From: Candidatus Woesearchaeota archaeon | GTDB taxonomy: Archaea; Nanobdellota; Nanobdellia; Woesearchaeales; JACJVV01 | Direction: 5' to 3' | NCBI GenBank assembly: GCA_020637495.1 | Contig: JACJVV010000002.1 | Location: 64,089 to 128,088, forward strand | Length of the DNA stretch: 64,000 nt | Shown: positions 4,934-33,937 of the stretch, piece by piece | How the letters are laid out: each line of letters starts with the position of its first letter | Position numbering within the stretch: position 1 is the stretch's first letter | The notes under the pieces: generated by a model | Told to the model about the DNA's origin: nothing | Seen by the model: the letters and a program-made list of their open reading frames with translations, nothing else | Databases searched by the model: none | Translations under genes and position numbers: made by a program

Positions 4934-5639
4934 GACTTCAGTAAGCAAGATAAAGGAGAATGACATAATAATAAGAGGAGAGAATCTATCAGGACTTGTT
5001 GAAGGTTCAAGTTTTTCAGACTCTATCTTCCTGATATTGCGAAACAGGAAACCAAGCAAGAAGGAATCACGTGTCTTCAACGCAATACTAGTCTCATGCA
5101 TTGATCATGGCATGGGGACACTCTCTGCATTGACGACGAGATTTGCTATGTCAGGCACTCATCAGCTGAATACAGCTGTCGCTGCAGGGCTTTGCTCTAT
5201 AGGGAAATTCCATGGTGGAGCAATAGAAAATTGCATGCAGCAACTTACCTCTGTAAAAGATGTCAAACAATTTGTATCTGACTCTTTATCTGCTAAGAAA
5301 GTGATATTTGGTTTCGGACACAAAGTATACAAGAAAGAAGATCCTCGTGCACAGCAGATTCTCAAGATCTGCAAAGAAGAGGGCTTCTCATCAGAATACA
5401 TTGATGCTGCTCTTGATATGGAGAAAGAGATAGAGAAGCAGAAAGGCAAGAAGCTTGTACTTAATATTGACGGTCTGATAGCTGCAATACTTCTTGAGAT
5501 GGGTTTTGCTCCTGAAGAAGGAAACGGAATATTCATAATTGCTCGTCTTCCAGGGCTTATCGCTCATGCAAATGAAGAGCGTCTGAAGGAGAAACCTGTA
5601 AGAAGATTAGAAGAAGACGAGATAGAATATGAAGGGTGA
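4923..5639 (+). CDS. Citrate-synthase-like small protein (citryl-CoA lyase-like)
   Basis: Carries the GFGHKVYK citrate-synthase signature. Its 238-aa length matches standalone citryl-CoA lyases. Overlaps the SucD-like gene. Confidence 0.6.
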   Translation: MRFKTSVSKIKENDIIIRGENLSGLVEGSSFSDSIFLILRNRKPSKKESRVFNAILVSCIDHGMGTLSALTTRFAMSGTHQLNTAVAAGLCSIGKFHGGAIENCMQQLTSVKDVKQFVSDSLSAKKVIFGFGHKVYKKEDPRAQQILKICKEEGFSSEYIDAALDMEKEIEKQKGKKLVLNIDGLIAAILLEMGFAPEEGNGIFIIARLPGLIAHANEERLKEKPVRRLEEDEIEYEG

Positions 5640-5650
5640 AAGGGATTAAT

Positions 5651-5899
5651 ATGGCAGAAAAAATCTTATCAGGGACAGTCCACAAGCTACCTGCAGATTT
5701 GAAGAAAGAGATATCATCATCAAAAGAGACTTTAGAGAAATGGAATTCTCTTACTCCATTAGGGAGGAATGAGTATATCTGTTGGATAACATCTGCAAAG
5801 AAGGATGAGACAAGGATGAAAAGGATTGATTGGATGAGAACTGACATTCTAAAGGGCAAACGCAGGCCTTGCTGTTGGCCAGGCTGCAGTCATAGGTGA
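5651..5899 (+). CDS. YdeI/OmpD-associated family small protein
   Basis: Pattern W..L.P..R.EYI.WI.SAKK.ETR..RI is typical of this family. Confidence 0.4.
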   Translation: MAEKILSGTVHKLPADLKKEISSSKETLEKWNSLTPLGRNEYICWITSAKKDETRMKRIDWMRTDILKGKRRPCCWPGCSHR

Positions 5900-5969
5900 T
5901 ATTTCACCGAAAGTATAAGTATTTGCCTAATTTATTACGAATTACGTAAGATAAGACTAACTTTTCATA

Positions 5970-5982
5970 AAGCTTTATAAGG
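5970..5982 (+). promoter_or_regulatory. TATA-like box (ctttataagg) about 28 bp upstream of the ATG at 6004
   Basis: Spacing is consistent with an archaeal promoter serving a leaderless or short-leader mRNA. Confidence 0.25.
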
Positions 5983-6003
5983 CATATCGTAATCAGCAGA
6001 AAC

Positions 6004-7908
6004 ATGGTAAAATCATCAAAGAAGATAAAATGGAAGAATCTTTTGCTGTCAAAGGAATTGATAGAACTATTCTCAAAAGCTAAATCTGCAGAAGTTATTC
6101 ATGAGAGGGCAAAGCTCCAGGACTTGTCTGTACCCTGTGATAAATCTCAGGCATATGATGTTTCTTATGAGCTTCCGAATGGCAAGACAGTCAGAGAAGC
6201 TTCTGTTGCAGATGTCAAGAATGGCATTTCAGCAAACTATATCGAGGATTACATGAGAAGACGTGACCCGGAGACGATGCTGATCGCTGATGATCTTCCA
6301 ACAGACAAGCAGACATATAAGAAGAAGTTCAAGAAAAGCTTTGATGGGCTGAGGAAAGATACATTGGACTGGATAAGAAAACAAGACCTATTGATTGTCC
6401 CGTTCATAGCTGGTAATGATGAATATGGGGTGCATTCTATTGCAATAGTCCCTAAGAATGCTGCATTCTTTGCATTCGGGATCTCTCTTCTTCAAGGCAG
6501 CGTCGATCCTGCAAAGATAAAGGATTTTGAGCCTAGATGCTTCCTCTATATTGCTCCTCCTTTCAGACACACTCATTTCGATGGCAAGCAAGCTGTCGTA
6601 CATAATAGGCTTAAGGATAATTATGAGATATTCGCATACAACCTGTATCCTGGCCCTAGTGCAAAGAAAGGGATATATGGTGTTCTGATACATTTTGGTG
6701 AGCTTGAGAATTTCCTTACGAACCATTGTGCAGTCGTTGAGGTGATAACACCTTATGGCAATAAGATAAGCATAATGCATGAAGGCGCTTCAGGCGGTGG
6801 AAAAAGTGAGATGAACCAGCATGTCCAGCGTGAGTGGGATGGTTCAATAGTTCTTGGACGAAACAAGGTTACCGGAGAGAAGAGGCAGATGACATTGCCT
6901 AGAGGATGCACGATAAATCCTGTAGTGGATGACATGGGTTCATGCTATAGCCAGATACAGAAGGATAACGGAAAGATAGGTGTAATCGACGCTGAAAGCG
7001 GATGGTTCATACGTGTCAATCACATCGAGAACTATGGCACTGATTTTGACATTGAATCAGCTACTATACATCCTAAGCAGCCTTTGCTTTTCCTAAATAT
7101 TGATGCGCAACCAGGAAGCACAGCGCTTCTCTGGGAGCATACTATCGATTCAAACAAGAAGCCATGCCCTAATCCAAGGGTCGTGATACCAAAGGAAGAC
7201 TTTCCTCAGATATCTACGAGACACACATATGTAGACGTCAGGAGTTTTGGGATAAGGACACCTCCTTGCACCAAGAAGAATCCATCTTACGGTGTTATAG
7301 GGCTTTTCCAGGTCATACCACCTGCAGTAGCGTGGCTTTGGAGGCTTGTCTCACCACGAGGTTTTGCAAATCCTAGCATAATCGATACTGAAGGAATGAG
7401 CTCTGAAGGAGTTGGCTCCTATTGGCCTTTCGCTACAGGCAAGAAGGTTGTACAGGCAAACATGCTCCTGAAGCAGATAATCGATAATCCTAAAGTGCAT
7501 TATGCATTATGCCCAGTAGGAAATCTTGGGGCATGGGAAGTGGGTTTCATGCCTGAATGGATAATGCGTGAATATCTTTCTCGACGTGGAGGGATACGTT
7601 TCATGGATTCTGATCTTTCTGAATCAAATTCAGTGTTGCTGGGTTACTCTATGAATAGGCTGGTCATAGAGGGCCAGACTATACCTGAGCATTTCCTAAA
7701 GCCTCAGCTTCAGCCAGAAGTTGGAAATGAGGCACATAAGAAAGGTTGCAGGATACTTGAGGATTATTTCAAGAGTGAACTTAAACAATTTCTCTCTCCT
7801 GAGCTTGATCCATTAGGGAAGAAGATAATAAATTTGTTCATGAAAGGCGGCAAGCTCCAGGATTTTGAGAAGCTCATTCCAGGAGAGAGCATATTCATAG
7901 ATGAATGA
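6004..7908 (+). CDS. Divergent PEP carboxykinase (ATP)-like protein (PEPCK/HprK P-loop fold)
   Basis: YPGPSAKKGIYG aligns with PckA YGGEMKKGMFS. HEGASGGGKSEM aligns with the kinase-1a loop FFGLSGTGKTTLS. DDMGSCY aligns with EGGCYAK. Confidence 0.4.
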   Translation: MVKSSKKIKWKNLLLSKELIELFSKAKSAEVIHERAKLQDLSVPCDKSQAYDVSYELPNGKTVREASVADVKNGISANYIEDYMRRRDPETMLIADDLPTDKQTYKKKFKKSFDGLRKDTLDWIRKQDLLIVPFIAGNDEYGVHSIAIVPKNAAFFAFGISLLQGSVDPAKIKDFEPRCFLYIAPPFRHTHFDGKQAVVHNRLKDNYEIFAYNLYPGPSAKKGIYGVLIHFGELENFLTNHCAVVEVITPYGNKISIMHEGASGGGKSEMNQHVQREWDGSIVLGRNKVTGEKRQMTLPRGCTINPVVDDMGSCYSQIQKDNGKIGVIDAESGWFIRVNHIENYGTDFDIESATIHPKQPLLFLNIDAQPGSTALLWEHTIDSNKKPCPNPRVVIPKEDFPQISTRHTYVDVRSFGIRTPPCTKKNPSYGVIGLFQVIPPAVAWLWRLVSPRGFANPSIIDTEGMSSEGVGSYWPFATGKKVVQANMLLKQIIDNPKVHYALCPVGNLGAWEVGFMPEWIMREYLSRRGGIRFMDSDLSESNSVLLGYSMNRLVIEGQTIPEHFLKPQLQPEVGNEAHKKGCRILEDYFKSELKQFLSPELDPLGKKIINLFMKGGKLQDFEKLIPGESIFIDE

Positions 7909-7923
7909 TTGGAAATGGATATT

Positions 7924-8199
7924 CTAAGCAGTCCTTTTTATGATATGGAATCCAAATCTTGTAGGGACTATCCCTGATACTGCACCAACTTCTAAATTAA
8001 ATGCTGCTTTCTCAAAATCAGGTACCATCTGACCTTTTCCAAATGAACCAAGGTCTCCCCCATTCTTACCTGAAGGACATGTTGAATGTTTCTTTGCTAA
8101 AGCTTCAAAGCTTTCACCATTATTTATTTTTTCAAGTAATTCTTTTGCAAAATTCTCATCTTCAACTAAAATGTGTGAAGCAGTTATCTGTTCTGACAT
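7924..8199 (-). CDS. Parvulin-type peptidyl-prolyl cis-trans isomerase (PpiC family)
   Basis: HILV...FE.LAKKHSTCPSGKNGGDLGSFGKGQMVPDFEKAAF...GFHIIK. Confidence 0.65.
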   Translation of the reverse strand: MSEQITASHILVEDENFAKELLEKINNGESFEALAKKHSTCPSGKNGGDLGSFGKGQMVPDFEKAAFNLEVGAVSGIVPTRFGFHIIKRTA

Positions 8200-8260
8200 A
8201 TTATCACCTAGCATGTCTAAAGTTAACCTTTTTTTAAAAGTTGTGTAAGAAAAAGAAGCA

Positions 8261-8271
8261 AGCCCCTGCTG
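8261..8271. repeat. Direct repeat copy A (gcccctgctgc) at the left edge of the island
   Basis: A GC-rich 11-mer in AT-rich DNA, related to the copies at 11363-11376 and 19207-19219. Confidence 0.4.
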
Positions 8272-10595
8272 CTACAAGAAATTTGTAATTATTACAAATA
8301 ATTTATAAGTTTGCGAATATCTATATCCCATATGATAAAATTATTAATTTCATTTACTCACAATCCTCGAGAAGTTTAGTAGGATTGAATTTGAAATGAG
8401 GTTGAAACAGAAATAAGTGAACTAAGATAATATTCAGAATAATGGTAAATGAAAGCTTGAAGAGATTTTGAAAGCAAAAAAATTGTCTGAGAATAAATAA
8501 AGCACCTAGTTATTTATGATGAATTTTGTAGTCCTGTATTAACCACATGTTATGACATTTGCATTTTCTTTTTTCATCTTTTACTCCATTTTTATCAACA
8601 CAATATAATCTACAAGGTAAGTTCCTTCTCTTCCAATTCCAATTGTTCAAGATTCGGCTAAAATTGCTACCAACTACTGTCATAATATCGTCAATATCAA
8701 ACTCTCAATATACGAAAATTTTTCTTCCTTTATTAAAATATAGGGATTTCATTAGATACTTTATCAGGGAAGCATTTTCTATATCTTTAAAGTATCAAAA
8801 ATAACCAGAAATGATTGTCCTCAAAATAATATTACTGGTCTGTAACTTTCTCCTCAGTGTAATTTAAAAAATGGTATAATCTATATAACCATTTTGTATT
8901 TTCTCCTACTTGAACCCACCCAGCTTGTTTCTTTCAATATCTCTTTGTCAATAGTAAGTTTTGAATTCTTCATCAATTTTGGCTTAAATCAAAACATTTG
9001 CACCTACTTGAAATTATAATCCCATATTGCTCATCAGTTGACTTGTAGGTATTTCCCCCATATGACAAGCAATTATGAATTTATTGCCAAGTAAGTTATA
9101 AACCTCTTCCTTACATTCATTAGGACAATAGCTTTACTTTTCAAGTATCTTCTCTTTGTTAATTGTAGGCATCTTGATTCCCTAAATTACCTATTTCATT
9201 AATATTTATCTCTGAACAACCTATTTTGTTAGAATTACAGGAGGGTAAGTATTATTATACAATTTTACAATTTGCTTCATTTTTGTTACTCTATATTTAT
9301 ATTTATAAAATGATTAAGCATCTTTTTGCAGGATAAAGGATTGCCAATGCAAGAATCCTAAATAGAGCCACATTTCAGGTATTATTCTATTACAACTAAA
9401 GGTAAGAAAATAATACAATAGTTGTCTATTCACTTGTCTTTTTTTAAGATTCTTCTTTAAGTTTTTTATTTAACCTTCTGTAATAATTTTCGTAATCTCA
9501 TTTGTTCTTCTAGGTAATTCACTATTGTTTAATAATTACTAAAGAAACAAAATGCTATAAATCAACAACTATTAGAATGTAAAAAGTAGAATAGAAAATC
9601 CCCTATCAATCAATCCCCTGATTAAAGATATGATAAACACGATCTCTGATTTTATTATGATAATATATAAGAGACAATGATTTTGCATACTTGATTTATT
9701 TTCCTTTCTGAATTTTTCAACAATTGTTTTGGCAGGTTTATATTAATAATAATCTTCACAATAAGATACCATTAGAGTGAAGCTTAGATTTACATACTGA
9801 ACAATTACCCATATGAATACTTAAATTGATTTTAGCAAATATAAATCTTTCTAGAATTATAAGCTTCCTTGTCTAGAAACTCCAAGCTTTTGTATTATAG
9901 GGTGATGACATGTAGAGATAGAATATCTAAAAATAAAAAGAAGTCCTTATTTTGGTAGTATGCAAAAATTAATTTCACCGGTTATCATTCTAGTCTTCAT
10001 TTTTTCTATTAGTTCTAATGAGTTTTTCTTACCACATCTATAGATTTTACATACTAGTATTGTCTAAATGTTATATTCTCTTTATTATGCATATTTCTTA
10101 TATGATTTTATTGAAATAGATCCAAATATGAATTATACTGTTTTATACATGATTTAACTTTTTTTTATAGGTTCTATTATCATATAGTCATATTATACAT
10201 TGTAAAAAAATAATAACTCAGAGATATCATTAACAATTGGATTTGGAATAGCTATAATTTGCAGTAATTAGGTTCATTAAGAGTTTTTTACAAAAAAGAA
10301 GATATAAATTTGATAGATATAATTTTGGTCGTACAGTAGATGCAATTACAGGATTCTTTGTAGGGTTAATCTTTATTCTATGTTTATCAATAGTCACTAA
10401 AGGATACATGCTTACTAATTTAGATAAGGAAATTCGTTTTTTATTTATAGTCTGAGCTTAATCTTTGGTATTTGGATTTTCAGGAAAGTGGATATACATA
10501 TTTGTGAGTATGAAAAGAAGAGATTATGATTTGCTTTTGACCGAGATAATGGAGTGTTCAGCTATTCTAAATTCCCTAATCTATTGTCCAGTAAT

Positions 10596-10835
10596 TTAGT
10601 ACATTCTATCAGCCATCTTCTCTTTGTCCAGATAATTTCTATTACCCACTGTAACAGGAACACGACCTTTGGTGAAATCAGCTACTCCTGCAGTATGCTT
10701 CAGTTCAAACATCGGCTGTAAAAACCACTTACGTATATACTTAGCCCAACCACTCTGCTTGTATCTGTTAGCTAAGAACCCTTTGTAATCTGCTATCAGT
10801 AAACACTTCAGGCACAAATACATAGTCCCTGGCAA
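10596..10835 (-). pseudogene. Gene fragment, possibly TnpB-N-terminal-like or other mobile-element protein
   Basis: 79-aa ORF with non-random composition (SGWAKYIRKWFLQPMFELKHTAGVADFTKGRVPV). Translation of the flanks continues but is broken by stops. Confidence 0.2.
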
Positions 10836-11362
10836 GTAAGCATGTAATAAACACTCTTTTTGTATTTCTGAATAAGTTTAGCAATACTTTCTGTATCCTT
10901 GCTTTTGACAACCTTGATTGTATTAGCATTGTTCATGTAATAGACTAATCTAGTAATCCTTACCCTGAATATACTAGTCCTATGGTATTGAACAACTGTC
11001 TATCCTTTTGCTTTACATTTGCAAACTCTTGTTAATTCAGAATCAGTAGGAGTATAAAAATGTCACAGCCATCTTTAGGTTTCTTTGTACTCTTCTTATC
11101 TTAGTTAACTCTGCATTATTTCTTCATTATCTATATGCTTCTTCTAGGTAATTGCTATGCCTCTTACTGTTTTGAAGAATTGGTCATTAGCATATTTCGA
11201 ACGACATTTCCTTTTATTCTTCATAGTGCTGAAATAATACACACTTTTGTTAGTTTTAGTAAAATTGCATAACTTTAAAGGTAGCTCTTGAGAAGTTTAG
11301 GCCTTAACCCAGTCGACAATGCATTGTACCTTTTACTCAAACACAAACTCAGAACTAAAAAA

Positions 11363-11376
11363 GAGCCCCTGCTGGA
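11363..11376. repeat. Direct repeat copy B (gagcccctgctgga), internal to the island
   Basis: Shares the exact 10-mer ccctgctgga with copy C. Confidence 0.4.
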
Positions 11377-11859
11377 GTGAGTGATATTGGTACATATCCC
11401 CTTTTATTACTTTTAGGAATAAAAAGGTCTCTAAAATAGTTATTTAAAACAATTATGTATATAACAGATTAACTTTATTAAGCTCGTAGCTGACTCTTAT
11501 GGATCAGATACGCAAAGCTATCGTGAATGATTCACCCTCAACAGTGTATCATGTCTAATTGGTATTTATATATTTTACAATTGATCTTATCACGATAAAG
11601 CTACAATTTCATTGGAGTGTGTAAATGGAAAATTATGAGCTTACTTTGATTTGTATATAATTGTTGTGAATTGTTGGCGGTATAGCCACAATGACGTGTA
11701 AAAGTTATTCAAATAAGCAAAAGCAGAGATAAGTATGGGATGTCTTTGACATCCCTACACCTCTAACATAATCATGCCATTGACAGCTATAAGCAAAAAA
11801 CATATATATATGTATGATTTATAAATAATATAAATAGGAAAAGAGGGATAATGGATCAA

Positions 11860-12700
11860 ATTTCAATAATGAGACTTATATGAAGATTAAATTAGATAGA
11901 AGAACTTTATATAATCTTCCATACAAAGATAAAATTATTAAAAGAATTATTGAACAAATAGATCTTCAAGATACTGAAATTAATGAAAAACACATTAGGT
12001 GTTCTTTTTGAGAACCTAACAAGAAACGAAGAGAAAAGAATATAATAATTTTATACCCCAAAGATATTGTTAATTATATGATTGAGTATTTAGACATAAA
12101 AAAGGATCAAATATTCTTAGACCCAATATGTGATGGGGTATTTCTTGTTTCAATATACAATTATCTTAAAAAGACTAATCAGGATATATTGAACAGTTTA
12201 TATGGAAAAGGATCTTAATAACTACAAGAATAACAAGACTTAATTTATGGTTATCAGATAAAAGAAACTGTGAAACATTAAAACATTGAGAAGAATATTT
12301 TAGTTGGGAATACTTTCAATATCTGATAAGAAATTCTAATTCTAAAGCTATTAATTGGAAGAAAGAATTCGCTATAATACAAAATGGTGGCTTTACTATA
12401 TTATTGAAATCCACCTTTATGTTACATTAAAAAAAATGAAGATTTTAAAGTAGATGAAGGTAATTTCTAAGGAAATTATTACTGACAAATAAATGTTGCT
12501 TCATTAGTAATAATGAGACTGTTTGAAGTATTAAAAGATGGTGAATGTTGGCATTTGTTTTACCAAAACAATGTTATGAGTTGTTAATCTGTTATTTAAA
12601 TTAAGAAGGCTTATCCTTAATAATTCAAGGATAACATTGTTGATTTAGGAACTGGATTTAAAGGAGTGAGGGTGAACAAATAATATTATTCCTAAAAAAT
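11860..12700 (+). pseudogene. Decayed gamma-class N6-adenine DNA methyltransferase (Type IIG/Eco57I-like)
   Basis: Remnant motif I LDPICDGVFL (about 12117-12146) and ARITRLNLWL (compare AKLRLWL). LPKQCYELL...DLGTGFKGVRVNQ matches the post-NPPY VLPKSFL...GVF..V.V region. Multiple in-frame stops and frameshifts. Confidence 0.5.
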
Positions 12701-13339
12701 AATAATATAAAAAATAATTTGGCTAACAAATACACTTGTAACTGTTATTAAAGATAAAAAATAACCAATTAAGAATCAAAAAAGTTTTTATGTAAAGCAA
12801 GCAATTAACATTTCATAAATATAATAATTTCTTATTATTTGATAGAGAAGAATATTATAATATTTTAGAAAAATTTCTAACCAAGGAACGCCTTTTAAGT
12901 GAATATGCTGAAATATTTAGGTGATATCGCTAAAAAAGGAAATTATAATTAAAGCGACCAAGGAAATACCATTAATAACTGGCAAGATATATCAAAGTTT
13001 TCATGTATTAGTAAGATCTAATATTAATGAAAGTTTAAGAATATGATAAAAATAACTCGTTTAAATTCAGATAAAGATAATCTTCTACAAAATATATTCT
13101 CCTTGAGGCTGGTATAATATCAGTAGATAATAATAAATTATATCACAAAATGATACTGTAACAAATATAGTATTGAAAATGAATCATAGATCTTAAATAT
13201 CTATTCGGATTGTTAAATTTAAAATTAATTAACTTTTTAATGTATGCATATATAACAAATCAAACTTAACTAAGCATACTGATGGTGTATATCTTGTAAA
13301 ATACCTATTATGGTTAATAAGCAATTAAAAAACGAATTA

Positions 13340-13800
13340 CATCTATAGACTGGCAAGTAACTCACCTGATTTTAAATTAATATTATCAAAGTTAGATACA
13401 GAAGTTTATAAGTTATATATTACTGATTCTGAAATACAATTAATTGAAGAAGGAGTAAGAGAAATATTATCAAAGAAAAGTATGTGGTAGATATGGCAGA
13501 AAGAATGAACAATTTAACTGGTAAAGAAATGGCTCCAAAATCATTTAGTATTTGAGAGAAATAAGAGTATCAATGAAGAGAATAAAACTAAAACATTCCT
13601 GCAATGTTCCTTTCAATGTTATGTAAAAAAATTAATTAATATTTATACAAAAGAAATTGGTGATGTCATTTTAGATCCTTTTATGGGTGTAGGTCAATAA
13701 TTTATTGTCAAAAGAATTCATAAAAGGGTGGGAATATCAAAAAGAATTCTTTGAGATTAAGTTAAAAGAGATTAGGTCAACAAAATTGCTCTAAAAAAAT
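13340..13800 (+). pseudogene. Decayed beta-class DNA methyltransferase (motif IV SPDF, C-terminal motif I DPFMGVG)
   Basis: IYRLASNSPDF (compare DLIFTSPPY), then IGDVILDPFMGVGQ*FIVKRIHKRVGISKRIL (compare PGDLVLDPFAGSGTT..AAKKLGRRFIGIE). TAG, TGA and TAA stops all occur in-frame. Confidence 0.5.
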
Positions 13801-16800
13801 CTAATGAAAATTAAGGCCAGAAATTTATTTAGAGACCTAAAAGTATTAAAAAAATAAGATCAGAGAGTGTTGATCTGTGTATAAATTTCCACCCATGACA
13901 TATTAAACCAACGTAGAAGTGTTGATAATAAAGATTCTATTAATTATTCTAATCAATAAAAAGATATAGGAAATACACTTTATAATTTATTTTTAGATAA
14001 CTAAAAAGAGATATATTCAGTAGTTTTCAGAGTTCAAAACCAAATAAAAGATGCTGTGTTGTGGTACGGATATAAGAGAAAGACAATTTTCCCATTACAT
14101 ATAGATATTACTAAATTAATGTAAAGAAATTGCCTTTGAACTTGAAGAATTTGTAATCTGGGGATGACAACACATGAGTATAATAATATGAAGACATTAG
14201 GATATCCATGGGTATTGCCCAATAAAGCAATATATGTGTTTATTGGAAAGATCTAAATAAATTAATTTTATAAAGCATCGAGGATTACAAAATGTAGAAT
14301 ATTGATTTAGTTTTGTTTACTTGTATGATTGTTTGCAAGGTGAAATTATTAGAGGAAAACTCTAAACAGAAATTATACTAGTATTCCACACAAATTTAGA
14401 GACAGAAGGAGAAAATACACAACAATCCATTAAATCAAGTTTATTAGATAATAAATAAGATTAAAGAATTAATTGGTATAGGGATCATGCTATGATGTAG
14501 AAAAATAAAAATGTTGTTGTATATTGCTCCTGAACCAAATGGCGATTTTCTAATGGAAGTATACCTTCCATTAGTTGGTCTTAAAATCAGTTGGCGGATA
14601 TTAGGATACCTAATAAATATTTGAAGTAGATCAAAATGTAAATTAGAATTCTTATATAGGCTTTTGAGATGTTACAGTCACATAAGAAAAGTAATTGTAG
14701 ATTTCTTAAGATTATGAAATAGAGTTTATATAGAAATAATGGATAATTGGGATATGGTTATAGATATAGTAAATTTGTTAAAATCTTTAGATGTAATTAG
14801 TACTATAAGATGGGCACATCCTAATTTTGTAAGATCCAAAAGCATTCAATATCATAAAGGCAACTCTAACTATATGACATCAAATCAAAATATGGGCGGA
14901 TGAGTATGAAAATAGGTTTTAATATAGAACATAAAAATAGACTCTTGAAAAATATTCTCTATAAATAAAAAGAATGGATGATTATTATAGGATCAAATCA
15001 GCTCAAGCTTAAAAACATTGATTGCGTAAAAGGGAATTATGCTAAAAGAATTGGACATATTGAATTATCACATCATTTATTTTTTTGAAGGAAAAGCAGA
15101 ATAAAATCAAAGAAATCCATCCTTGATGAAGCAAATCATAAAATACATCCTAAAATAAGAGTAAACATTTTAATAATTGGACAGAAATTGCTTGGAGTTA
15201 GGTTATCATGGAGTAAAGAAGAAGAAAAATTATATCCTTTATAGAAGATTGGTTAAAGAAATATTTAACTTGAAAAGTATAAAGCGTTATGATAATAAAT
15301 AAATTTCATGCAAGTTCTCGAAGATATTTAGATGTGTGTTATGAATATAATATTTTATGTGAGGCTGCGATTGGTCTAAAATAAAAAGTAGATATTGCAG
15401 AATTTCTTACAAAAAGGAGATTCATATAAATTAGCATTTGTTGAAGTCAAAGATACTGGACTTAACTCCCTAAGGATTTAGGGTCAATTATGGGGTTATA
15501 CACAATTAATTGATCCTATTGAATCTTTTCAATTACATCCAAGGGATTAGGTACTTATCAAAATTATTTAACATTTGTAATAGAGGAGACCTTTAAGATA
15601 TGGAATAAAGATTCAATAAACATATGAAATTAGCCAAATGACCATAGTAGAAATACCATCATGTGGGATTCAATAATCCCAAAACTATGATTCATCTGTT
15701 CTGTTGTTACCTGATGGTTGTTTCTGGAAAAAATCCCGAGCGAATCTCATATATTAAATTTAGTAGTAGTGAAGAACATTGGACTGAACTGTCATAATTT
15801 AAATAAAGAGATTTATAGCCAGGCACAACTGAACTAGCAGATCAGGATAGTGATCTAATGAAGGAATCTGTTCTTGGAGGGACAACGAAGGTTTAAAGCT
15901 TTGAAAATCTATTCTGGAAAAGTTATCTAATCTAACTTAAACATTTTCTCATAAGTTTTTGAACAATCTCTAAAATCTTCAATATTCCATCTTTGATGTC
16001 AACTGATGATCTTGGTGAATAAGTCATATCTAATGTCATAATAATATTTAATTTTAGACATATCTTTCTTTGAGATTGTAACATACTTTTTTACTTGTAT
16101 GAACTTTATGACGTGCACTAAAATATCCAAAGTTGTTATCACTATAATGCACATTACTTTATTTACCAAGAATCTTTAAATGCAATTTCTAACGTACTAT
16201 CTATAAGTAACACTATTAAAGCAACTCTATTTTTTGCTGTCAAACTCTTCTTATAAATACATCTGTGGCAACTATTCCAATCAACTAACTTTTGTCCGGG
16301 TTGCTTTTGATACAATTTTTCTTATTAAATGATGATACTTTTATCCTCATATCTTTAATTTTGATTAGCAGGCGGTAGGTATAACTTCTTACAGTTCCAA
16401 ATTCATTCGTTCGCTAATCCTTTCCTTTTATCATACTTATGATTCCATCATCCCATTTTCCTTGTGTAAAGAACGAGAGAAACCTTGGCATATGGGTTTT
16501 ACAACCTCTATTAATTTAGGTTGATATTTTCATTCTAAATATCTTCTTATTATAATTAATAGCCAATTTACTACTATTCCCAAGGCATTAATTGAGCACT
16601 TCCTTTCATTGATACTAAAACCCTCACTAATGAAAAATGTTAGTGTGGTTAATTTGCCAAATTAGTTCCAAAACAACATCAAATGTCTTTACAGCACGAT
16701 CTATAAGTCTACACATAATAAAATATAATCATACTGCCCACCAAAGGGCTTGTTTCATTAGATAGTCCCCTTAATACTAACTTCTATCTTATTTTTTCCA

Positions 16801-17998
16801 TCTAATTTTACTGTGCCAGTATATTCTTTGGTTTATAATTAGTGGAAATGACCATTGTAGGTGATGGGCATTATTTTGTTTCCATTCACATTAATTTCTA
16901 TTTTATTATTCAAGAAATTAAAGTATACCCTACCAACACATGTTTTTCAAGGTATTTTACAGAACTGTCTTCAATTTTAAACCTTAATTTATTTAGAAAT
17001 ATTTGTGTTGAACCTCAATAATATCATCAGTTTCTATAATAAGGGAGATGCCAACATCATTTCTTAACCAAGAGTCGTCAAATCTAATAAGATAAGTTTA
17101 TTATTTTTATATCTGATATTATTTTACTTCTTGAGAAAGTGTACCACTGCTCTTTTTGTACCAACACCAAAAGTCCAATGACTTCTTTTTCTGGATCATT
17201 TGCTATCTCCTAATTGATTAGAACTTTAGATTTTCCTTCACACCACCAGCATTATCACTAACTTTAATTATTTGTTGATCCAATGATGTTTATATCTATT
17301 CTCATCTCTTTTGTTTTAGATGATTGTAAACACCAGTTATCAATGCTATTATCGATAAGTTCTTGCAAATTGTTTATAAATCATAATCAGAAATAATTGA
17401 TAAATAATCTTTTGCAGAGTCCCATCAAGTTTTTTACAAATTTCCCCTAATTTATTAGTGAAATACGATGTAAATTAATATATTTTACGTAAAAATCAAG
17501 GGTTTATCATATTTTTGTTAGAAAATGCGATAGCTATTTTCGTTATAATAAAAAAATAAGGTAATAATTGTAGTGGCTACAAATATATCACGCTGACGAT
17601 AAAACCCATCAAAATGGCCAATTTTTAACGAAGCGCTAAAGGTATTCAAACCTTGTTAAACTATTTTGATAGGTTAATTCAAAAGAAAATATTTTATGAG
17701 ATTCTGAAATTACGCTTAAACCTTGTTTCTATATTACTATACTGATTACATATTATTATTGTATTAACTATTATTATATGTTAATATGGCCATACTTGAT
17801 AAGGAGCACTCAGACAAATTATATTCAAATGGACAAAATCTAACTTCTTTAGTAATTTCTTTAAAGACCTCTTTTTATTTTTCCTTTTACTTTTGAGTGT
17901 ATAATATTCTATATTTTTCAGTCTCAATCACATCTGTTATAGTAAAGTCCTTAATGCCTGCCTTTCCAGAATACTCATGATATTTACCAGCTTTATCT

Positions 17999-18700
17999 TC
18001 AAATATTGTTTATCAAGTCTGGGTGTGTTTCTTCCATATTAGCAAGTCTATCTTCGTTCTTCTTATTCTGTAAATATTTCGCTTTTGCCTCAGCAGTAAG
18101 TGGAATCCACACTGCTGACAGTAATCGCATCCTTCTATATTGTTGAATGAGCATTTGTTCACAACAGTATTTGTAACTTTTAGCTTTTGTTTCATGGCCA
18201 TATATCTTTACGTAGTCTATCACATCATCTTTTAACACCTAATCTACCATAGGTCTCTTGCATAATGCTTACTGAATGTCCATGCCTTTAGCTGCAAAAT
18301 TGTAGGGATAATTCTCAACTTTATCCAAATAACAACTATGTCTTAAATTGTAGGCTCAAAGGTTTCTTGAGTTTAGCCTTGTTCTTCAAAATAGATAATC
18401 TTTTCTGATAGCTTGATAGTTTAATGTTTTTTATGCTATCTTTTCTTCTTCATTTTAGTTTTATTTGTTTTGTTCAAACCATAATAGATCAAGAGGTTTT
18501 TAGAAGGATGCTGGATTATACCATCTTTTGTATATAAGGCGCACACCGACACAGGCTACGCTTTCTTTTCCCCTGGTTCTTCCTTTCTTTACTTTGATAT
18601 GAACTATATGTTCATCAAAGGATATGCAGCCAAGTGTTAAATCTACAAATTCTCCCACGTAGTCCTGCATCTAATTGTAGGCCATAACTATGGTTTTTTG
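17999..18700 (-). pseudogene. Decayed IS200/IS605-family TnpB/OrfB-like gene
   Basis: Minus-strand translation GLQLDAGLRGRICRFNTW (compare GIDLGLKDFAVLSDGTKI) and a C-terminal zinc-finger remnant CDYCQQCGF, with about 20 in-frame stops and frameshifts. Confidence 0.4.
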
Positions 18701-19189
18701 TTTGAAGATTAGTAGTTTTCGTAATTAACTTTTCCTTTCTTCCAAGAGATCACATCTTCTTCATTTAAGTCTCTCATACAGTCTTTTTCTCCTTTGGTGA
18801 CTTTAATATCCTTGAACTTTAGAGTTCATATCATTTAACCATCTGAAATAATCTTGAACATTTATCAGTCTTATATGAAGAATTATTTGGTATTTTGTCT
18901 GTATTTTAGCAAATATTTGTTTATGGTATCTCATTTACCATCTCTTTCTTTATGTCCTACTATGTCTTAAAGAATTTGAATCTATCTAAAAAAAGATAGA
19001 AAAGTCTTGAAGGTTCATTTGAATTTCTATATGAAACTAAAATTTCTTAATGGTTTTATTTTCATTTGTAATATCATTAGAACTAAAAAGTCTTTTTTCG
19101 TAAGCTTCACAGCGCTGGGGAAAAAATCTGTAGTGGGGTATTAAATACTATTAAAATTAGGTAATATATAAATATTTTGATGGGGATAT

Positions 19190-19490
19190 GTACTTCAAAG
19201 GGTATTGCTCCCTGCTGGATGTGCGCCCAGGACCTCTACCCTTTAATTTGTAAGTTCATTTTCGTTTCCCACTGACAATTCTGAGCTTGTCTGTAAACTC
19301 ACAAAGTACCAAGGTAGTGCAATGGCTACTATGCTACAGGGCATTTGTTTTATAGTCTGCCAGACTTATGTTCATTGATTTGCATTTCAGGGTTTAGCAA
19401 AAGGCTGCTACCATACAGGGCACTGTTATGCTTCTGGAGTAAGGACACATGAAATAAGTCCTGTACTACAGGCATAATGGAAATATTTTC
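19190..19490. ncRNA. Candidate structured non-coding RNA (GC-rich island with three imperfect repeats of ctac.a..cagggca). Identity unknown
   Basis: No ORF in any frame. GC is clearly higher than in the flanks. Island repeat copy C lies at its left end (19207-19219). Confidence 0.15.
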
Positions 19491-19533
19491 CTGAACCATA
19501 TATAAACATTACCCCACATAACAATATAAATGG

Positions 19534-20289
19534 ATGAATAACTTCATCAATATGCAATCGCATAACAGCAACTTGAGTTTCATGAAGAGATCAGAGAAGC
19601 TCAAAGGCACAGCAATAATAGTCTCAAAATATAAGGGATATGATAACCTGTTTCTTGGTCTTTATTATTCAAACGATATTAGTATTGTCGATAGGATGAA
19701 ATCAACACCTATTATGAAGAGGAAGCTGGAATTGGCAAAAGAATCCTTACAAGCGCAGAACCCTGGTGTCAATATCAATGTCAGCATAGCCTCAATCGGT
19801 GTCTGGCTGACAGAATCAGCAGCATATTCAGCCAATGAGGATATAATATTTACAGGTCTTTCCTCAGATAGCCCTAAAGACATCTATGCAGAGAGCTATG
19901 TCCATCTCGCAAGATACTTGAAGATGATGGACCTTAATGATCTTCAGAGAGTTGAATTCCCTATATTGGAGACTCATGACACATTCTACTCAAACTTTAT
20001 TGGAGATCTTCCAAGATACTTATCGCACGTCTTCATCTCACCTATGAAATATGCAATGACGTTAGATGATGGACAGGTGATGTTCGATAGCATATCAAGA
20101 GAATTGATGAGATTTACAGATGCAGAGCCTGTCAATAGATACGCAATGGAATTATCCGATGTTATCCGAAATGACCCTTCGAATATAAGGCTTGAACTCC
20201 AATATATACAACTGATAGATTCACTATATACTGAGAATTATGAGCGAGCTGCCAAGTGCAGGGATGCAATAGCCATTCTTAATGGATGA
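19534..20289 (+). CDS. Hypothetical protein
   Basis: 251-aa intact ORF with no motif recognised. Confidence 0.35.
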   Translation: MNNFINMQSHNSNLSFMKRSEKLKGTAIIVSKYKGYDNLFLGLYYSNDISIVDRMKSTPIMKRKLELAKESLQAQNPGVNINVSIASIGVWLTESAAYSANEDIIFTGLSSDSPKDIYAESYVHLARYLKMMDLNDLQRVEFPILETHDTFYSNFIGDLPRYLSHVFISPMKYAMTLDDGQVMFDSISRELMRFTDAEPVNRYAMELSDVIRNDPSNIRLELQYIQLIDSLYTENYERAAKCRDAIAILNG

Positions 20290-20290
20290 T

Positions 20291-20497
20291 CTATCTTACA
20301 AGAAAGAACCATACGACAGCTACTATGATTGCTATGATAGCAAGTAACCATATGAACACATGTGACTTCTCTTCAAAACCTTCTTTTTTCATGATCTTCG
20401 ATTCCTCTTTTCCAATCTTTCTCAATTCAGCATCATGGTATCTGCTTTTCTTCCTGAGCTCTCTTACCTTAGCCTTGTTTGCAGTATCCTTGCGCAT
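20291..20497 (-). CDS. Small tail-anchored membrane protein (basic N-terminus, single C-terminal TM helix)
   Basis: 68 aa, KR-rich, followed by IWLLAIIAIIVAVVWFFLV. Confidence 0.3.
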   Translation of the reverse strand: MRKDTANKAKVRELRKKSRYHDAELRKIGKEESKIMKKEGFEEKSHVFIWLLAIIAIIVAVVWFFLVR

Positions 20498-20587
20498 ACA
20501 ATGGTTATTATTATATTCCTTTATATACTTTAGTTATCATTATAGAATTAAAAAAAGTCACTACTCCTCTTGTCGCTATCCTTGTCT

Positions 20588-20698
20588 CTATTGATACATA
20601 TTGCTAATATGTATTCTAAGTTCCTCTATCTCCCAAGGTGAAAGATCATCAACCTCCTCTGGGTTCAAAAGGTTTCCGAATTTGTCTTCGTATAGCAT
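20588..20698 (-). CDS. Small conserved ORF (36 aa), copy 1 of a duplicated element
   Basis: MLYEDKFGNLLNPEEVDDLSPWEIEELRIHISNMYQ. About 75% nucleotide identity to 61306-61418. Confidence 0.25.
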   Translation of the reverse strand: MLYEDKFGNLLNPEEVDDLSPWEIEELRIHISNMYQ

Positions 20699-20964
20699 CT
20701 TTGCCACCTCCTTAGGGATGTTACTGCTTCACTGCAATCCTCAACATGCGTTACCCCTTGCTATTATCGTAGTTTTTCCGGGTTATATTTCTTATGGGAA
20801 TATTATATGCATGTATATGTATAAATAGTCACAATATCTATATTTTAGTAAATTATATATATTTAAGGCATTTTACTTAATTGGGGGCTTAAATATGTAC
20901 AGAAGCATTCCTAATGCTGATAGTATATATTCGCAGTAAATAAGCACCATGGGGCAAGGTACAT

Positions 20965-21900
20965 ATGAAACGTAGCATAGTGAAGCATGGGCCATCTTCT
21001 TTTATAGTCTCATTGCCATTGAGATGGATCAAGGAGCATAACCTGAATAAAGGCGATGAAGTTGATGTAGAAGAAGTAGGCCAGGACGTAATCATCTCTG
21101 CGTCTTTTAAGGAGACAAGCGAGAATGCCGAACTCCATATCAAGGATACAAAGGATATGACTCAGCAGGTGATATCAGCATTATACAAGCGTGGAATTGA
21201 CGAGATACGGATATATTATGATAATCAAACAGACTTTCAACTGATACTTAACAGCATATCTCAGGAAGCATTGGGCTATGAGATCGTGGAGACTAATGAT
21301 AAGGTATGCATAGTAAGGAACATAACAAAACTAACTAAAGAATTTGACACGATCCTAAGAAGGATATTTCTCGTGACACTCTCGTTGGCAGATGAAGGCA
21401 TTAAGCTGCTGCAGAGCAGGAATTTTGATGCTCTTGAATCAATAGTTTTCCTTGAGAAATCAAATAACAAGTTTACGACTTTCTGTAGGCGTTATCTTAA
21501 CAAATATAGTTCTGATTCATTTGACAAGTTAGGTCCGATATATTTCATAGTTGAGCTTCTTGAGAAGATTGCAGATCAATACAAGTATCTTTTTGAGGAT
21601 ATGAGGAAACATAAGAGCAATAAGAACGGCAAGAATAATAATAAGAATTACAAGAAGATGCTATCATATCTTAGCAAGACAAGGGACATGCTGAGGACCT
21701 ACTATGAATGCTTCTATAAGTTTGATATGGTCAAGATCAGGCAGATTGAGGCTGAATGGAAAGCGATGGATGAATCTTTGGCACAAGCTTATAAGGGCCT
21801 GAATCACCCGATGGAATACTGCCTATATCATCATGCACGATCTTTGCTAGAGAAGACATTTGCATTGGTTGATCCGTTGCTTGTTCTGAAGAGACACTAA
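20965..21900 (+). CDS. AbrB/SpoVT-domain plus PhoU-like regulator (archaeal phosphate-uptake-regulator type)
   Basis: N-terminal swapped-hairpin (HGPSSFIVSLPLRWIKEHNLNKGDEVDVE), then a helical PhoU-like region. Confidence 0.45.
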   Translation: MKRSIVKHGPSSFIVSLPLRWIKEHNLNKGDEVDVEEVGQDVIISASFKETSENAELHIKDTKDMTQQVISALYKRGIDEIRIYYDNQTDFQLILNSISQEALGYEIVETNDKVCIVRNITKLTKEFDTILRRIFLVTLSLADEGIKLLQSRNFDALESIVFLEKSNNKFTTFCRRYLNKYSSDSFDKLGPIYFIVELLEKIADQYKYLFEDMRKHKSNKNGKNNNKNYKKMLSYLSKTRDMLRTYYECFYKFDMVKIRQIEAEWKAMDESLAQAYKGLNHPMEYCLYHHARSLLEKTFALVDPLLVLKRH

Positions 21901-23816
21901 TTTGCTATTGCAGATTTTCGTATTGCGTCTGCAACCTTTGCAGGCTTGCAATTATTAAGCCTGTCAAGTATCTTTCTCCATCTGTAGCCGAAGCTTCCTC
22001 CAGGATGGAAATGCCTGAAGAAGAAGTAATGATCAAAATCTGCTTTCTTGTTATGATAATTATCCTGTATCTGGGCAATCGTCCTCTCTACAGAAGAACA
22101 ATAAGCCTCTATGCATGCTTCATAATCATGCAGATGCTTTCTCCTGTTCTTCAATGGTGCAGAAAATAGATGTGCTGTATCTTCCATGTTCTTCTTGTAC
22201 TCTGCAAAAAGCCCTTCAATATTTATTACCTTCATATCTGTCACAACCTCATCATCAAGGAATACAACCTCATTCCCTTTATCGAAGAATGAATTCATAG
22301 AGTTGTCTCTTCTGCCTGCAACAATATCATATGCTGCCAAGTCACCAAGCATGGTGAAGAACTTGATGTCAAATTCTGGCCTGCCGAAATAAGTGGGTGA
22401 GACTTTATGGGTTGCAACCGCATAGATATAATCCAGTTCCATGTATCCCATCCCTATCTCAACATCGTCGACAAGTGCTGTTATCTCTTTGAAATCATGG
22501 TTTACTATAGGGGCTCCCAATTTCTTTATTCCTTTATATTTGTCTTTTGTATGCCTTCTGTAATCGCCTGCAAGGCTCTTTGCTTCATGCAATTCCTTGC
22601 CCTGCATGAAATAATGTGGAACGTCCCATTTGAGCATCCTGATGACTTTAACGATTGGCTCTTCTCTGCCATGCACCCTAATCTCTGCAAGCAATGTTTC
22701 TTTCATTCCTTCTGTAGGCTTAATGGATACGCCCTGCCCGACTTTTCCAATATTTATCTCTATTATCCTGCTGTATTCAGACCTGAAGTTATTTATGAAT
22801 TCAGGGACGCGTGCATCGCATAAGTCTTCAAGCCCTTCTGGGTTGTCTTCATATTCTATTAGTATTGGATCAGTCTCTATATCTCCCTCGCTTATCCTTG
22901 CTCCTGGAAGCCATTGAGTATGGTATTTGAAAGCGTCAAGACCAAGTTTCTCCTCTTCCAATACCTCATGCGGTTCTTCGGAATTCTCAGCCATCAATAG
23001 GGAGTACATCTTGTTCAGCCACTCTGTATTGCGGATATCATCGACCCTGAAGACATTCTTTGTGGTGCTCTCCATCAATTCCTTGAGGGCAGAATATTTC
23101 TCTCTTACCTCTCTTGGGTTCATATGCTCATACATCACGTTGAACTTCTCTGTCGGCATGTTCGACATGAAAAGCTCAAGCTCGACATTTCCTATCTTGT
23201 TCTCTTTTCCGATATAATCCCTGATGAATATCATATGCTGACGTAGCTCGTCATCATTCATACTCTCAAACTTTCCGAACTGTTCTAAGGTAAGAATCCT
23301 TGTTCCCGTCTCATAACAATAGTAGAATACTTTCTGGTCATCATATACTGACATCAATGATTGAGTCACACTGTTTCTTATATCTTCCAGTGTTTTTGGC
23401 TTAGGGCTTATCCTCCATAATTGTCCTCTGCTTTTTATGTAATCCCTTGCTTTATCATCGTGCACTCTTGTGAATTTAATGAATGGGAGCTTCCTGTATC
23501 CAAGCAATGTGCTTATCATCTCATCTGCCTTGAATACACTATCCATGTCATCAGTGCATCTTATGTAGACATTAGTGTTGTCCATGTTTATGTCAACTAC
23601 ATTGTCATACATCTCAGATATCTGGTCAGAACTCATCTTAGGTTTACCAATATCTGCTAGATGCTTATTATGTGCATCCATTATCTGCATTGCCAAGACA
23701 CCATGAGGCATGTTGCCTGTTATTATTGCATCTATAGAAGGGAATACGCAACCCACCTTTGCTGTTACATTTCCACTATTATCCTTTTCTAAAGGCTTAG
23801 GTCCGTAGATATTCAT
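21897..23816 (-). CDS. AceK-like (isocitrate dehydrogenase kinase/phosphatase family) protein
   Basis: C-terminal LGDLAAYDIVAGRRDNSMNSFF..GNEVVFLDDEVVTDMKVINIEG parallels AceK [44 protein letters not shown]. Length is similar to AceK. Confidence 0.35.
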   Translation of the reverse strand: MNIYGPKPLEKDNSGNVTAKVGCVFPSIDAIITGNMPHGVLAMQIMDAHNKHLADIGKPKMSSDQISEMYDNVVDINMDNTNVYIRCTDDMDSVFKADEMISTLLGYRKLPFIKFTRVHDDKARDYIKSRGQLWRISPKPKTLEDIRNSVTQSLMSVYDDQKVFYYCYETGTRILTLEQFGKFESMNDDELRQHMIFIRDYIGKENKIGNVELELFMSNMPTEKFNVMYEHMNPREVREKYSALKELMESTTKNVFRVDDIRNTEWLNKMYSLLMAENSEEPHEVLEEEKLGLDAFKYHTQWLPGARISEGDIETDPILIEYEDNPEGLEDLCDARVPEFINNFRSEYSRIIEINIGKVGQGVSIKPTEGMKETLLAEIRVHGREEPIVKVIRMLKWDVPHYFMQGKELHEAKSLAGDYRRHTKDKYKGIKKLGAPIVNHDFKEITALVDDVEIGMGYMELDYIYAVATHKVSPTYFGRPEFDIKFFTMLGDLAAYDIVAGRRDNSMNSFFDKGNEVVFLDDEVVTDMKVINIEGLFAEYKKNMEDTAHLFSAPLKNRRKHLHDYEACIEAYCSSVERTIAQIQDNYHNKKADFDHYFFFRHFHPGGSFGYRWRKILDRLNNCKPAKVADAIRKSAIAN

Positions 23817-33726: not shown

Positions 33727-33803
33727 AGTTCAGAACGAAGCAAAGCATAGTGACAGAACGTTCGAATTCCTGACTCCATTTTTATTTCTGCAAGAAATAA
33801 GAG

Positions 33804-33937
33804 TGTGAGAGAGGGGATTCGAACCCCCGAACCCACTAAGAGACAGGATATCTTCCAAAGGAAGACTGCCCTTTGCATAAAGGGTATCTCATCGTGACTT
33901 AAGTCCTGCGCATTTGACCAGGCTTTGCTACTCTCAC
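33804..33937 (-). tRNA. tRNA-Leu (anticodon TAA) with a 48-nt intron at the canonical 37/38 position
   Basis: Acceptor stem GTGAGAG/CTCTCAC, D-arm GCAAAGCCTGGTCAAATGC, anticodon stem CAGGA/TCCTG with loop CTTAAG plus intron, long variable arm, T-arm GGGGGTTCGAATCCCCT and discriminator A. Confidence 0.6.

Follow-up and report, generated by a model that had tools for sequence, protein, structure and literature searches.

Integrases of the SSV type (type I, or 'suicidal') are defined by an attachment site (attP) located inside the integrase gene, which is split upon integration (PMC7253208, PMC8371274). This mode of integration, the pseudogenes that it produces and the tandem integration of elements at one tRNA gene are all documented (PMC7253208, PMC8371274), and in a published model suicidal integrases insert one element after another at the same tRNA gene (PMC7253208, Fig. 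8). The elements described with such integrases include SSV1 and SSV2 of Sulfolobus and pTN3 and pT26-2 of Thermococcales (She et al. 2001 as cited in PMC7253208; PMC8371274). A review of 2021 lists SSV-type integrases for Crenarchaeota and Euryarchaeota only (PMC8371274), and a paper of 2020 presents them as encountered in geothermal habitats (PMC7253208); neither mentions the DPANN archaea. In the literature we found no report of SSV-type integration in Woesearchaeota, and the homologs of the integrase considered here are already labelled as integrases in the databases. The DNA analysed is a stretch of 64,000 nucleotides from Candidatus Woesearchaeota archaeon (assembly GCA_020637495.1, contig JACJVV010000002.1, positions 64,089 to 128,088 of the forward strand), which is called the window below and is numbered from its first nucleotide. 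It contains an AT-rich block of 11 kb, bounded and divided by three short GC-rich direct repeats (sites 1 to 3, or cores 1 to 3), in which a degraded SSV-type tyrosine integrase gene was detected. The two segments separated by the internal repeat are named E1 (left) and E2 (right).

In our view, the block at 8.26-19.22 kb consists of at least two decayed elements in tandem that entered a tRNA-Thr(GGU) gene at its 3' end by means of an SSV-type integrase, a reading to which we attribute a probability of about 0.78. As in the described SSV-type elements, the catalytic domain belongs to the family PF16795 with the SSV1 integrase as best PDB match, attP would be in the frame of the integrase, the target is a tRNA gene, the flanking direct repeats consist of tRNA sequence, the int(C) part abuts an att copy after integration and the trapped elements decay to pseudogenes. 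The locus differs from these elements by its DPANN host, by a recognisable core of only 10-13 nt, by the degenerate state of the target tRNA, by the lack of an integrase in one of the two segments and by the N-terminal segment carried by its full-length relatives. The pNOB8-type elements (type II, lambda paradigm) also possess a tyrosine recombinase, tRNA targets and direct repeats, and tandem integrations have been reported for them (PMC8371274). However, their attP is located outside an intact integrase gene, whereas in the window the core is in the integrase frame and the gene of a relative is demonstrably split. The mechanism is thus textbook for archaeal type I integrases, and what is new is its context in DPANN/Woesearchaeota.

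The repeats are observed directly. The initial annotation had indicated three GC-rich strings, aGCCCCTGCTGc, gAGCCCCTGCTGGA and gctCCCTGCTGGA, and all three are present at the coordinates that it gave (Table 1). The exact 10-mer that it attributed to the last two, CCCTGCTGGA, is present in sites 2 and 3, and the relatedness of site 1 is closer than had been claimed, with the 11-mer AGCCCCTGCTG common to sites 1 and 2. The longest word common to the three sites is only the 8-mer CCCTGCTG. On the minus strand, site 1 reads GCAGCAGGGGCT, which copies part of the tRNA 3' end described below, and site 2 reads TCCAGCAGGGGCT followed by a T-run. Cores 1 and 2 thus both display CAGCAGGGGCT and then T-runs on this strand, as expected of a tRNA 3' end with its terminator. 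These data support the view that the three repeats are copies of the last 12 or so bases of a tRNA-Thr gene and not arbitrary GC-rich motifs. No additional copy of the core was found inside the block with up to three mismatches allowed.

The significance of the repeats varies with the frame of reference, and the proper frame is the block of 28% GC. The low-GC block with 100 nt on each side was therefore shuffled in 500-nt blocks, which preserves the composition, and any GC-rich k-mer was accepted in the test, which allows for the post-hoc choice of the motif. A repeated 10-mer with at least seven G+C appears in 2.9% of these shuffles, two or more such 10-mers in 0.2% (three are observed), and a GC-rich 8-mer present three times in 0.4%. 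The claim that a chance recurrence is unlikely holds inside the low-GC block (0.2-0.4% of shuffles). Over the window as a whole, CCCTGCTG is not rare, with eight copies in the 64 kb, five of them outside the island, and the 9-mer CCCTGCTGG is marginal, with two occurrences against 0.29 expected, a number reached in 5 of 100 shuffles.

The composition of the DNA changes at the outer repeats. The GC content is 0.40 to the left of position 8214, 0.286 in 8272-11363, 0.276 in 11377-19206 and 0.41 in 19207-19533, i.e. approximately 0.28 inside the block and 0.39-0.41 outside; on the right side the rise occurs at approximately 19200. These steps coincide with cores 1 and 3, and the outer repeats are real edges as had been proposed. 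Direct copies of the core beginning at 8261, 11364 and 19207 bound DNA of differing composition. The description of the island as decayed is also appropriate: the longest open reading frame (ORF) of the block does not exceed 81 amino acids and the density of stop codons is 6-9% in all six frames, which by our own estimate is approximately that of random DNA with 28% GC. Strand skew divides the block into a minus part (8-11 kb), a plus part (12-16 kb) and again a minus part (16-19 kb), in agreement with the orientations of the integrase and methyltransferase remnants. Other explanations of the block were tried and rejected. No reassignment of TGA, TAG or TAA brings back long ORFs, and comparison of the island by tblastx and blastn with the rest of the window and with itself gave nothing, which speaks against a duplication of host DNA. 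A search for structured RNA with Rfam gave no match at the gathering threshold in the island and none with E<=5 over 7900-19700. The folding of the three sites is unremarkable, except for a hairpin on the minus strand at site 3 (z=-2.4).

The initial annotation had suggested looking for an integrase remnant inside the island, and one is present in E1. Stop-masked six-frame translations were scanned against Pfam, and a match to PF16795 ('Archaeal phage integrase') was obtained at 10596-10757 on the minus strand (E=7.1e-10, 39.5 bits for a gathering score of 27 bits). The last 93 codons of the integrase are free of stops, and the two-thirds upstream of them lie in a different frame, interrupted by about six stops. 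A word-index protein search with the fragment returned no matches and HMMER was needed: the exhaustive HMMER search with the stop-free stretch of 93 codons recovered 13 homologs. The profile made from nine of these 13 homologs matches 10596-11276 on the minus strand (E=6.9e-22, positions 48-273 of 283), and a second, frame-shifted stretch carries the profile match to position 41 at 11296. With this profile, the pseudogene is the sole clear integrase copy in the window. The catalytic residues R...W...GR...Y are conserved in the C-terminal third, so that the SSV1-type catalytic domain is present, in a pseudogene. The best PDB matches are the structures 3VCF, 4DKS and 3UXU of the catalytic domain of the SSV1 integrase (E=0.017), and the wider family includes entries annotated as 'integrase [Nanoarchaeota archaeon]', a Thermococcus integrase and the SSV integrases.

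The position and the frame of the pseudogene relative to core 2 are also direct observations. The gene reads leftward and its 5' end is situated approximately 70 nt from the internal repeat. A conserved N-terminal motif of the family, (F)IDW(I/V)KA, is represented in the window by VQCIVDWVKA, which matches ISQFIDWIKA in the homologous element L029 described below, and core 2 lies 33 nt upstream of this motif; the two are in frame with each other and separated by one stop.

At the right edge, pieces of a tRNA-like sequence are found on the minus strand of the 40%-GC spacer situated to the right of site 3. Exon 1 (19343-19307) reads (T)GCCCTG-TA-GCAT-AGTAGCCA-TTGC-A-CTACC-TTGGTA. It is followed by an intron of 65 nt (19306-19242) and by exon 2 (19241-19207), G-GGTAG-AGGTC-CTGGG-CGCACA-TCCAG-CAGGGAG-C, which ends at 19207 exactly at site 3. 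The likeness to tRNA-Thr at core 3 is directly measurable: over its full length, the spliced sequence can be aligned with two tRNA-Thr genes, that of L029 (score 68) and that of a second relative, L031 (score 61), for shuffled sequences at 31 +/- 5 with a maximum of 48 (z about 7). The anticodon is GGU, in the loop TTGGTA, and the perfect anticodon stem is split by the intron at the canonical position 37/38, as in L031. Nineteen of the 21 stem pairs of the cloverleaf can form; the D-loop lacks GG and the T-loop (CGCACA) is aberrant. The canonical D- and T-loops and the recognition by detectors that characterize a functional tRNA are thus lacking, and 19207-19343 is treated here as a tRNA-derived remnant, probably a degenerate tRNA gene, and not filed as a tRNA gene. 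The att core nevertheless lies within tRNA sequence, core 3 being the last 13 nt of this degenerate tRNA. When single-base indels are allowed, the match of site 2 with site 3 lengthens to CAC(A)TCCAGCAGGG(A)GC and runs into the odd T-loop; for this reason, the present 3' part of the tRNA may be element-derived. Approximately 60 nt upstream of the remnant, a second and diverged copy of the tRNA-Thr 5' half aligns locally with exon 1 (score 26, shuffles 13.9 +/- 2.8 with a maximum of 28) and may be the trace of an older rearrangement or integration.

The search for the repeat in relatives, also suggested at the start, found it in kind: integrase homologs from DPANN genomes adjoin tRNA-Thr genes, and the core of one of their elements resembles that of the window. 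This element is L029 (contig CAZRCV010000008.1 of the NCBI metagenome-assembled genome GCA_964598745.1), an apparently intact and AT-rich integrated element of 7.8 kb at 9972-17852. It is bounded by an 18-nt direct repeat, AAGCCCCTGATGGGATTT, which is identical to the 3' end of tRNA-Thr(CGU) and which the core of the window, AGCCCCTGCTGG, closely resembles (compare AGCCCCTGATGG in L029). One copy of the L029 core is situated 12 nt upstream of the called start of int(C), and the other 7.8 kb away at the 3' end of the tRNA-Thr(CGU). At this distal end, an ORF of 67 amino acids reads into the core; with the N-terminal end of P0125, a full-length homolog, it shares 63% identity (E=3e-17). Joined in silico, int(N) (67 amino acids), the core and int(C) (274 amino acids) give one uninterrupted ORF of approximately 345 amino acids. 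The same architecture, with a split and rejoinable integrase, is therefore observed in a relative, and it places this clade in the SSV type, with attP inside the gene and the gene split upon integration. With P0122, which among full-length homologs is the closest to the window pseudogene, the L029 integrase shares 50% identity, and with the C-terminus of the window int(C) 58% (tblastx). L029 and the window thus have in common the integrase family, a tRNA-Thr 3' end as target, a similar core and a 7.8 kb AT-rich element. Unlike the window, L029 displays open genes, a perfect 18-nt repeat and a recognisable int(N), and beyond the integrase the two have no genes in common.

The tRNA and the integrase have opposite senses in L029 but the same sense in the window and in the relatives L031 and L030. 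In L031, an intron-bearing tRNA-Thr(GGU) ends 27 nt upstream of the integrase; for the distal att copy of this contig the only candidate is the 10-mer GAGGAGGCTT at 18058, which is not significant alone. In L030, an intron-rich tRNA-like sequence occupies the same position upstream of the integrase as the tRNA of L031. The 5' part of this sequence (9820-9990) resembles exon 1 of the window tRNA-Thr. The sequence, which is missed by ARAGORN, seems to contain several insertions, one of them in the T-loop (TTCAAAT[ATCAGAAATGATTGAAAG]TCTCAC), and a gene for a LAGLIDADG endonuclease is found nearby (8160-9338). In five viral contigs (L024-L028) the integrase is located 55-414 nt from a contig end; four of these contigs open with a reverse-complemented tRNA 3' fragment that can be recognised immediately upstream of the integrase. 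The integrase is the only gene common to the elements of the window and those of the relatives. The N-terminal segment of the full-length relatives (MPRPTK...ITLDKSVYKNLK...) may be a domain of ribbon-helix-helix type.

Table 1. Features of the array and of its flanks, in coordinates of the window.
Feature	Coordinates	Strand	Basis or remark
Parvulin-type peptidyl-prolyl isomerase gene, left flank of the array	7924..8214	-	Pfam Rotamase, E=3.9e-25
Host intergenic DNA	8215..8260	-	Minus strand: T-rich trailer GCTTCTTTTTCT, then A/T-rich upstream region of the parvulin gene; read from the sequence
Site 1, distal att core copy AGCCCCTGCTGC	8261..8272	+	8261-8271 is aGCCCCTGCTGc; 11-mer in common with site 2
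Segment E1, 3.1 kb, 28.6% GC, probable remnant of one or more integrase-bearing elements	8272..11363	-	Composition, stop density, integrase content
Candidate second, far more decayed integrase fragment (box-I region, profile positions 73-159)	9347..9540	-	Two weak hits of the family profile, in colinear order
SSV-type tyrosine integrase pseudogene, int(C) part	10596..11296	-	PF16795, family profile, tblastn with homologs
Site 2, internal att core AGCCCCTGCTGGA	11364..11376	+	11363-11376 is gAGCCCCTGCTGGA
Segment E2, 7.8 kb, 27.6% GC, decayed element	11377..19206		
Left 12-bp inverted-repeat arm GTACATATCCCC	11390..11401	+	13 nt from the site 2 core
Possible N6-adenine DNA methyltransferase remnant, motif I region (...DIVNYMIEYLD...FLDPICDG...)	12012..12215	+	Weak
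Beta-class N4/N6 DNA methyltransferase remnant (...GDVILDPFMGVGQ...)	13239..13718	+	Stop-interrupted
Right 12-bp inverted-repeat arm GGGGATATGTAC	19182..19193	+	At 13 nt from the 3' end of the tRNA
Site 3, att core GCTCCCTGCTGGA	19207..19219	+	Is gctCCCTGCTGGA; minus strand TCCAGCAGGGAGC, the 3'-terminal 13 nt of the tRNA-Thr-like gene
Degenerate intron-containing tRNA-Thr(GGU)-like gene, putative attB target	19207..19343	-	
Second, diverged copy of the tRNA-Thr 5' half (acceptor and D-arm), GCCCTGTATGGTAGCAGCC...	19401..19425	-	About 60 nt upstream of the tRNA remnant
First intact right-flank gene, 251 amino acids	19534..20289	+	No family match

The integrase remnant, the tRNA-Thr 3' end and the layout of the relatives together support the proposal of the initial annotation that the direct repeats are of att type and derive from site-specific integration. 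The tandem insertion of segments of approximately 3.1 and 7.8 kb is supported as well, two being a minimum since the 3.1 kb part may hold a second integrase fragment. Read on the minus strand, the array would begin with the tRNA-Thr-like gene (19343->19207) ending in core 3, followed by E2 and core 2; then would come the int(C) pseudogene with the rest of E1, core 1, the original T-rich trailer of the tRNA and the parvulin gene. This layout would be the same-sense geometry of L031 and L030 with a second element added. At each integration, strand exchange would take place within the core of approximately 12 nt, CCAGCAGGGGCT, which corresponds to the end of the T-stem, the 3' strand of the acceptor and the discriminator. 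The core would be common to the attP of the element, inside the integrase ORF, and to the tRNA gene, and each event would leave one more copy. With attP inside the integrase gene, integration splits and inactivates the integrase, so that the elements would be trapped and decay. That recombination made these junctions, the number and the order of the events and the entry of E2 by the same route are what we infer from this arrangement.

E1 itself may be composite and hold a second, heavily decayed integrase, as suggested by colinear but weak hits of the integrase profile at 9347-9540 on the minus strand; their summed score is reached by 0.7% of shuffles. The region 9672-9756 of the same strand was grouped with these hits, and weak matches to N-terminal motifs of the family are found upstream.

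Two remnants recognised in E2 resemble methyltransferases. For 12012..12215 the only PDB match is the Type I restriction-modification methyltransferase subunit 3UFB (E=0.058, weak), without any Pfam match. The remnant at 13239..13718 matches PF01555 (E=9.7e-4, 19.6 bits, below the gathering score) and, in the PDB, DpnA (E=0.005) as well as CcrM and N4 methyltransferases. No integrase was detected in E2 with the family profile over all six frames, nor with Pfam in the six frames of 16000-19560 and the plus frames of 11400-16100. At its two ends, E2 bears the arms of a 12-bp inverted repeat without mismatch, and an inverted match of this length is found in 0.05% of shuffles (P=0.0005). The reconstructed attP of E2 is consequently symmetric: 12-bp arm, 13 nt, 13-nt core, 13 nt, 12-bp arm. 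The arms may serve to bind a recombinase, or they may mark an element of another kind. The attP(E2) signature was searched for in the viral contigs and not found, so that no living relatives of E2 were detected there. The possibility that E2 is delimited by one long terminal inverted repeat (core, spacer and arm) was rejected by base-by-base comparison, since only about 6 of 26 positions match outside the 12-bp arm. The minus-strand hairpin at site 3 (19197-19247) has a 10-bp stem, UUAAAGGGUA / UACCCUUUGA, in which the beginning of tRNA exon 2 is paired with the bases that open E2; 6 of 200 shuffles fold as well.

Among the other histories, the one that survives best, though we regard it as improbable, is that of a single composite element, for instance a pre-integration cointegrate, that entered the tRNA gene once, the internal core being then the attP in its complete or reconstituted integrase gene. 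The frame is indeed open for approximately 30 codons upstream of core 2 and continues with one stop into the N-terminal motif of the integrase, an arrangement resembling int(N)-core-int(C). Moreover, a tandem junction recreates an integrase-like gene (PMC7253208, Fig. 8), so both histories end in the same topology. On the other hand, nothing upstream of core 2 resembles the N-terminal, ribbon-helix-helix-like domain of the family, and the attP flanks differ between E1 and E2, the 12-bp arms being present in E2 only.

We hold it for very improbable that E2 is a transposon-like element with 12-bp terminal inverted repeats which landed beside an older att scar, the sharing of CCCTGCTGGA being incidental. 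The perfect inverted repeat at both ends and the lack of an integrase in E2 would agree with such an origin. However, no target-site duplication abuts the arms, which are flanked by GTGAGTGATATTG and TTCAAAGGGTATT, and the Pfam-scanned frames contain no signal of a transposase or a casposase; a transposon with terminal inverted repeats would have such a duplication directly beside its repeats and would carry a transposase. In addition, the 10-mer direct repeat is situated exactly 13 nt outside both arms, which is not expected from a chance landing, and site 3 is a tRNA 3' end, as predicted by site-specific integration. Least credible of all is the recurrence of the three motifs by chance or by codon or sequence bias beside an unrelated integrase pseudogene: the window-wide counts of the 8-mer and the 9-mer given above leave it some room, but the shuffles of the low-GC block, the coincidence of the repeats with both composition boundaries, the integrase 5' end and the tRNA-Thr-like 3' end, and their resemblance to the att core of the homologous element L029 all oppose it.

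Several observations weigh against the tandem array of integrated elements that we prefer. The shared cores are short, 10-13 nt, compared with 18 nt in L029, and the characterised SSV-type systems have longer cores, reaching about 44 bp in SSV1. Beside site 3, where the geometry predicts an integrase, none was detected in E2; this segment shares no genes with the elements of the relatives, and its 12-bp arms, which are absent from the attP of L029 and from that of E1, are outside the explanation given by the model. Beside site 1 and on the right side of site 2, no significant trace of int(N) was detected. The tRNA-Thr-like gene was not called by ARAGORN (default settings, introns enabled, or relaxed thresholds on the spliced sequence) and was not recognised by Rfam at E<=10 over 19100-19560. 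The left junction is reproduced by an independent assembly, the Logan contig L014, which is identical from the parvulin gene through site 1 and approximately 70 nt into the island. For the right junction there is no such confirmation, exact-protein look-ups for the right-flank genes having returned none on record. Finally, no empty site was found among the genome, metagenome and protein collections, and the recombination at the junctions is accordingly deduced from the arrangement of the locus. This negative result is explained by the lack of synteny in the nearest relatives. The best match of the scan of genome contigs with the DUF4914 protein of the left flank has 73% identity and no synteny; in the metagenome scans the right-flank protein had no match and DUF4914 reached at most 60% identity; and the contigs of the closest DUF4914 protein homologs (71-74% identity) have no gene order in common with the window.

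We advance only tentatively, as the odds are against it, a joint proposal: E2 would be an integrase-less element of satellite type and more than a second decayed SSV-type element, and the SSV-type integrases, described until now from Crenarchaeota and hyperthermophilic Euryarchaeota, would form a clade targeting tRNA-Thr in DPANN archaea. The attP of E2 would then mimic the tRNA-Thr core between symmetric binding arms, and E2 would integrate using the suicidal integrase of a co-resident element.

The DNA that adjoins the array on the left belongs to the host. In the intergenic region there, the T-rich trailer is read as a putative tRNA terminator and the A/T-rich stretch as a putative promoter of the parvulin gene. 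Further to the left (2779-7908) are found ATP-citrate-lyase-like genes (ATP-grasp/citrate-binding, CoA-ligase and citrate-synthase-like subunits), followed by the DUF4914 protein, which has a weak region similar to phosphoenolpyruvate carboxykinase. Outside Woesearchaeota, the closest homologs of this DUF4914 protein are bacterial (Anaerolineae, Spirochaetes, Bacteroidales), which hints at an inter-domain transfer. To the right of the island, the region 19534-23816 contains five ORFs of 251, 102, 75, 311 and 639 amino acids, without PADLOC matches and with almost nothing in Pfam or NCBIfam; the only traces are an AbrB/MazE-like N-terminus and a faint PhoU trace in the protein of 311 amino acids. 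The GC content of the first 2 kb is slightly lower (approximately 0.36), and the region may be lineage-specific or an older acquired one. The archaeal features of the window include a TrmB regulator and an intron-containing tRNA. The latter is a tRNA-Leu(UAA) with an intron of 48 nt at 33803-33937 on the minus strand (Rfam, 43.7 bits), also detected by ARAGORN with introns enabled. By default ARAGORN reports no tRNA genes in the window and hence misses this one, so that default scans under-call the tRNAs of this genome.

Intron-containing tRNA genes and their remnants thus escape default finders here, with the consequence that islands targeted to tRNA genes seem to have no target. The 11 kb AT-rich block, free of ORFs in an otherwise densely coding genome, is explained in our reading as a graveyard of trapped mobile elements, and is then neither an exotic non-coding feature nor a recoded region. 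With its split and rejoinable integrase and its defined att core of 18 nt, L029 provides an intact reference element for this integrase clade. On our reading of the locus, the 'suicidal' mode of SSV-type integration, including the tandem occupation of one tRNA gene, is documented in DPANN/Woesearchaeota and its range is extended accordingly. If the tentative proposal made above is true, a DPANN clade of SSV-type integrases would weaken the link that has been proposed between this type of integrase and life at high temperature.

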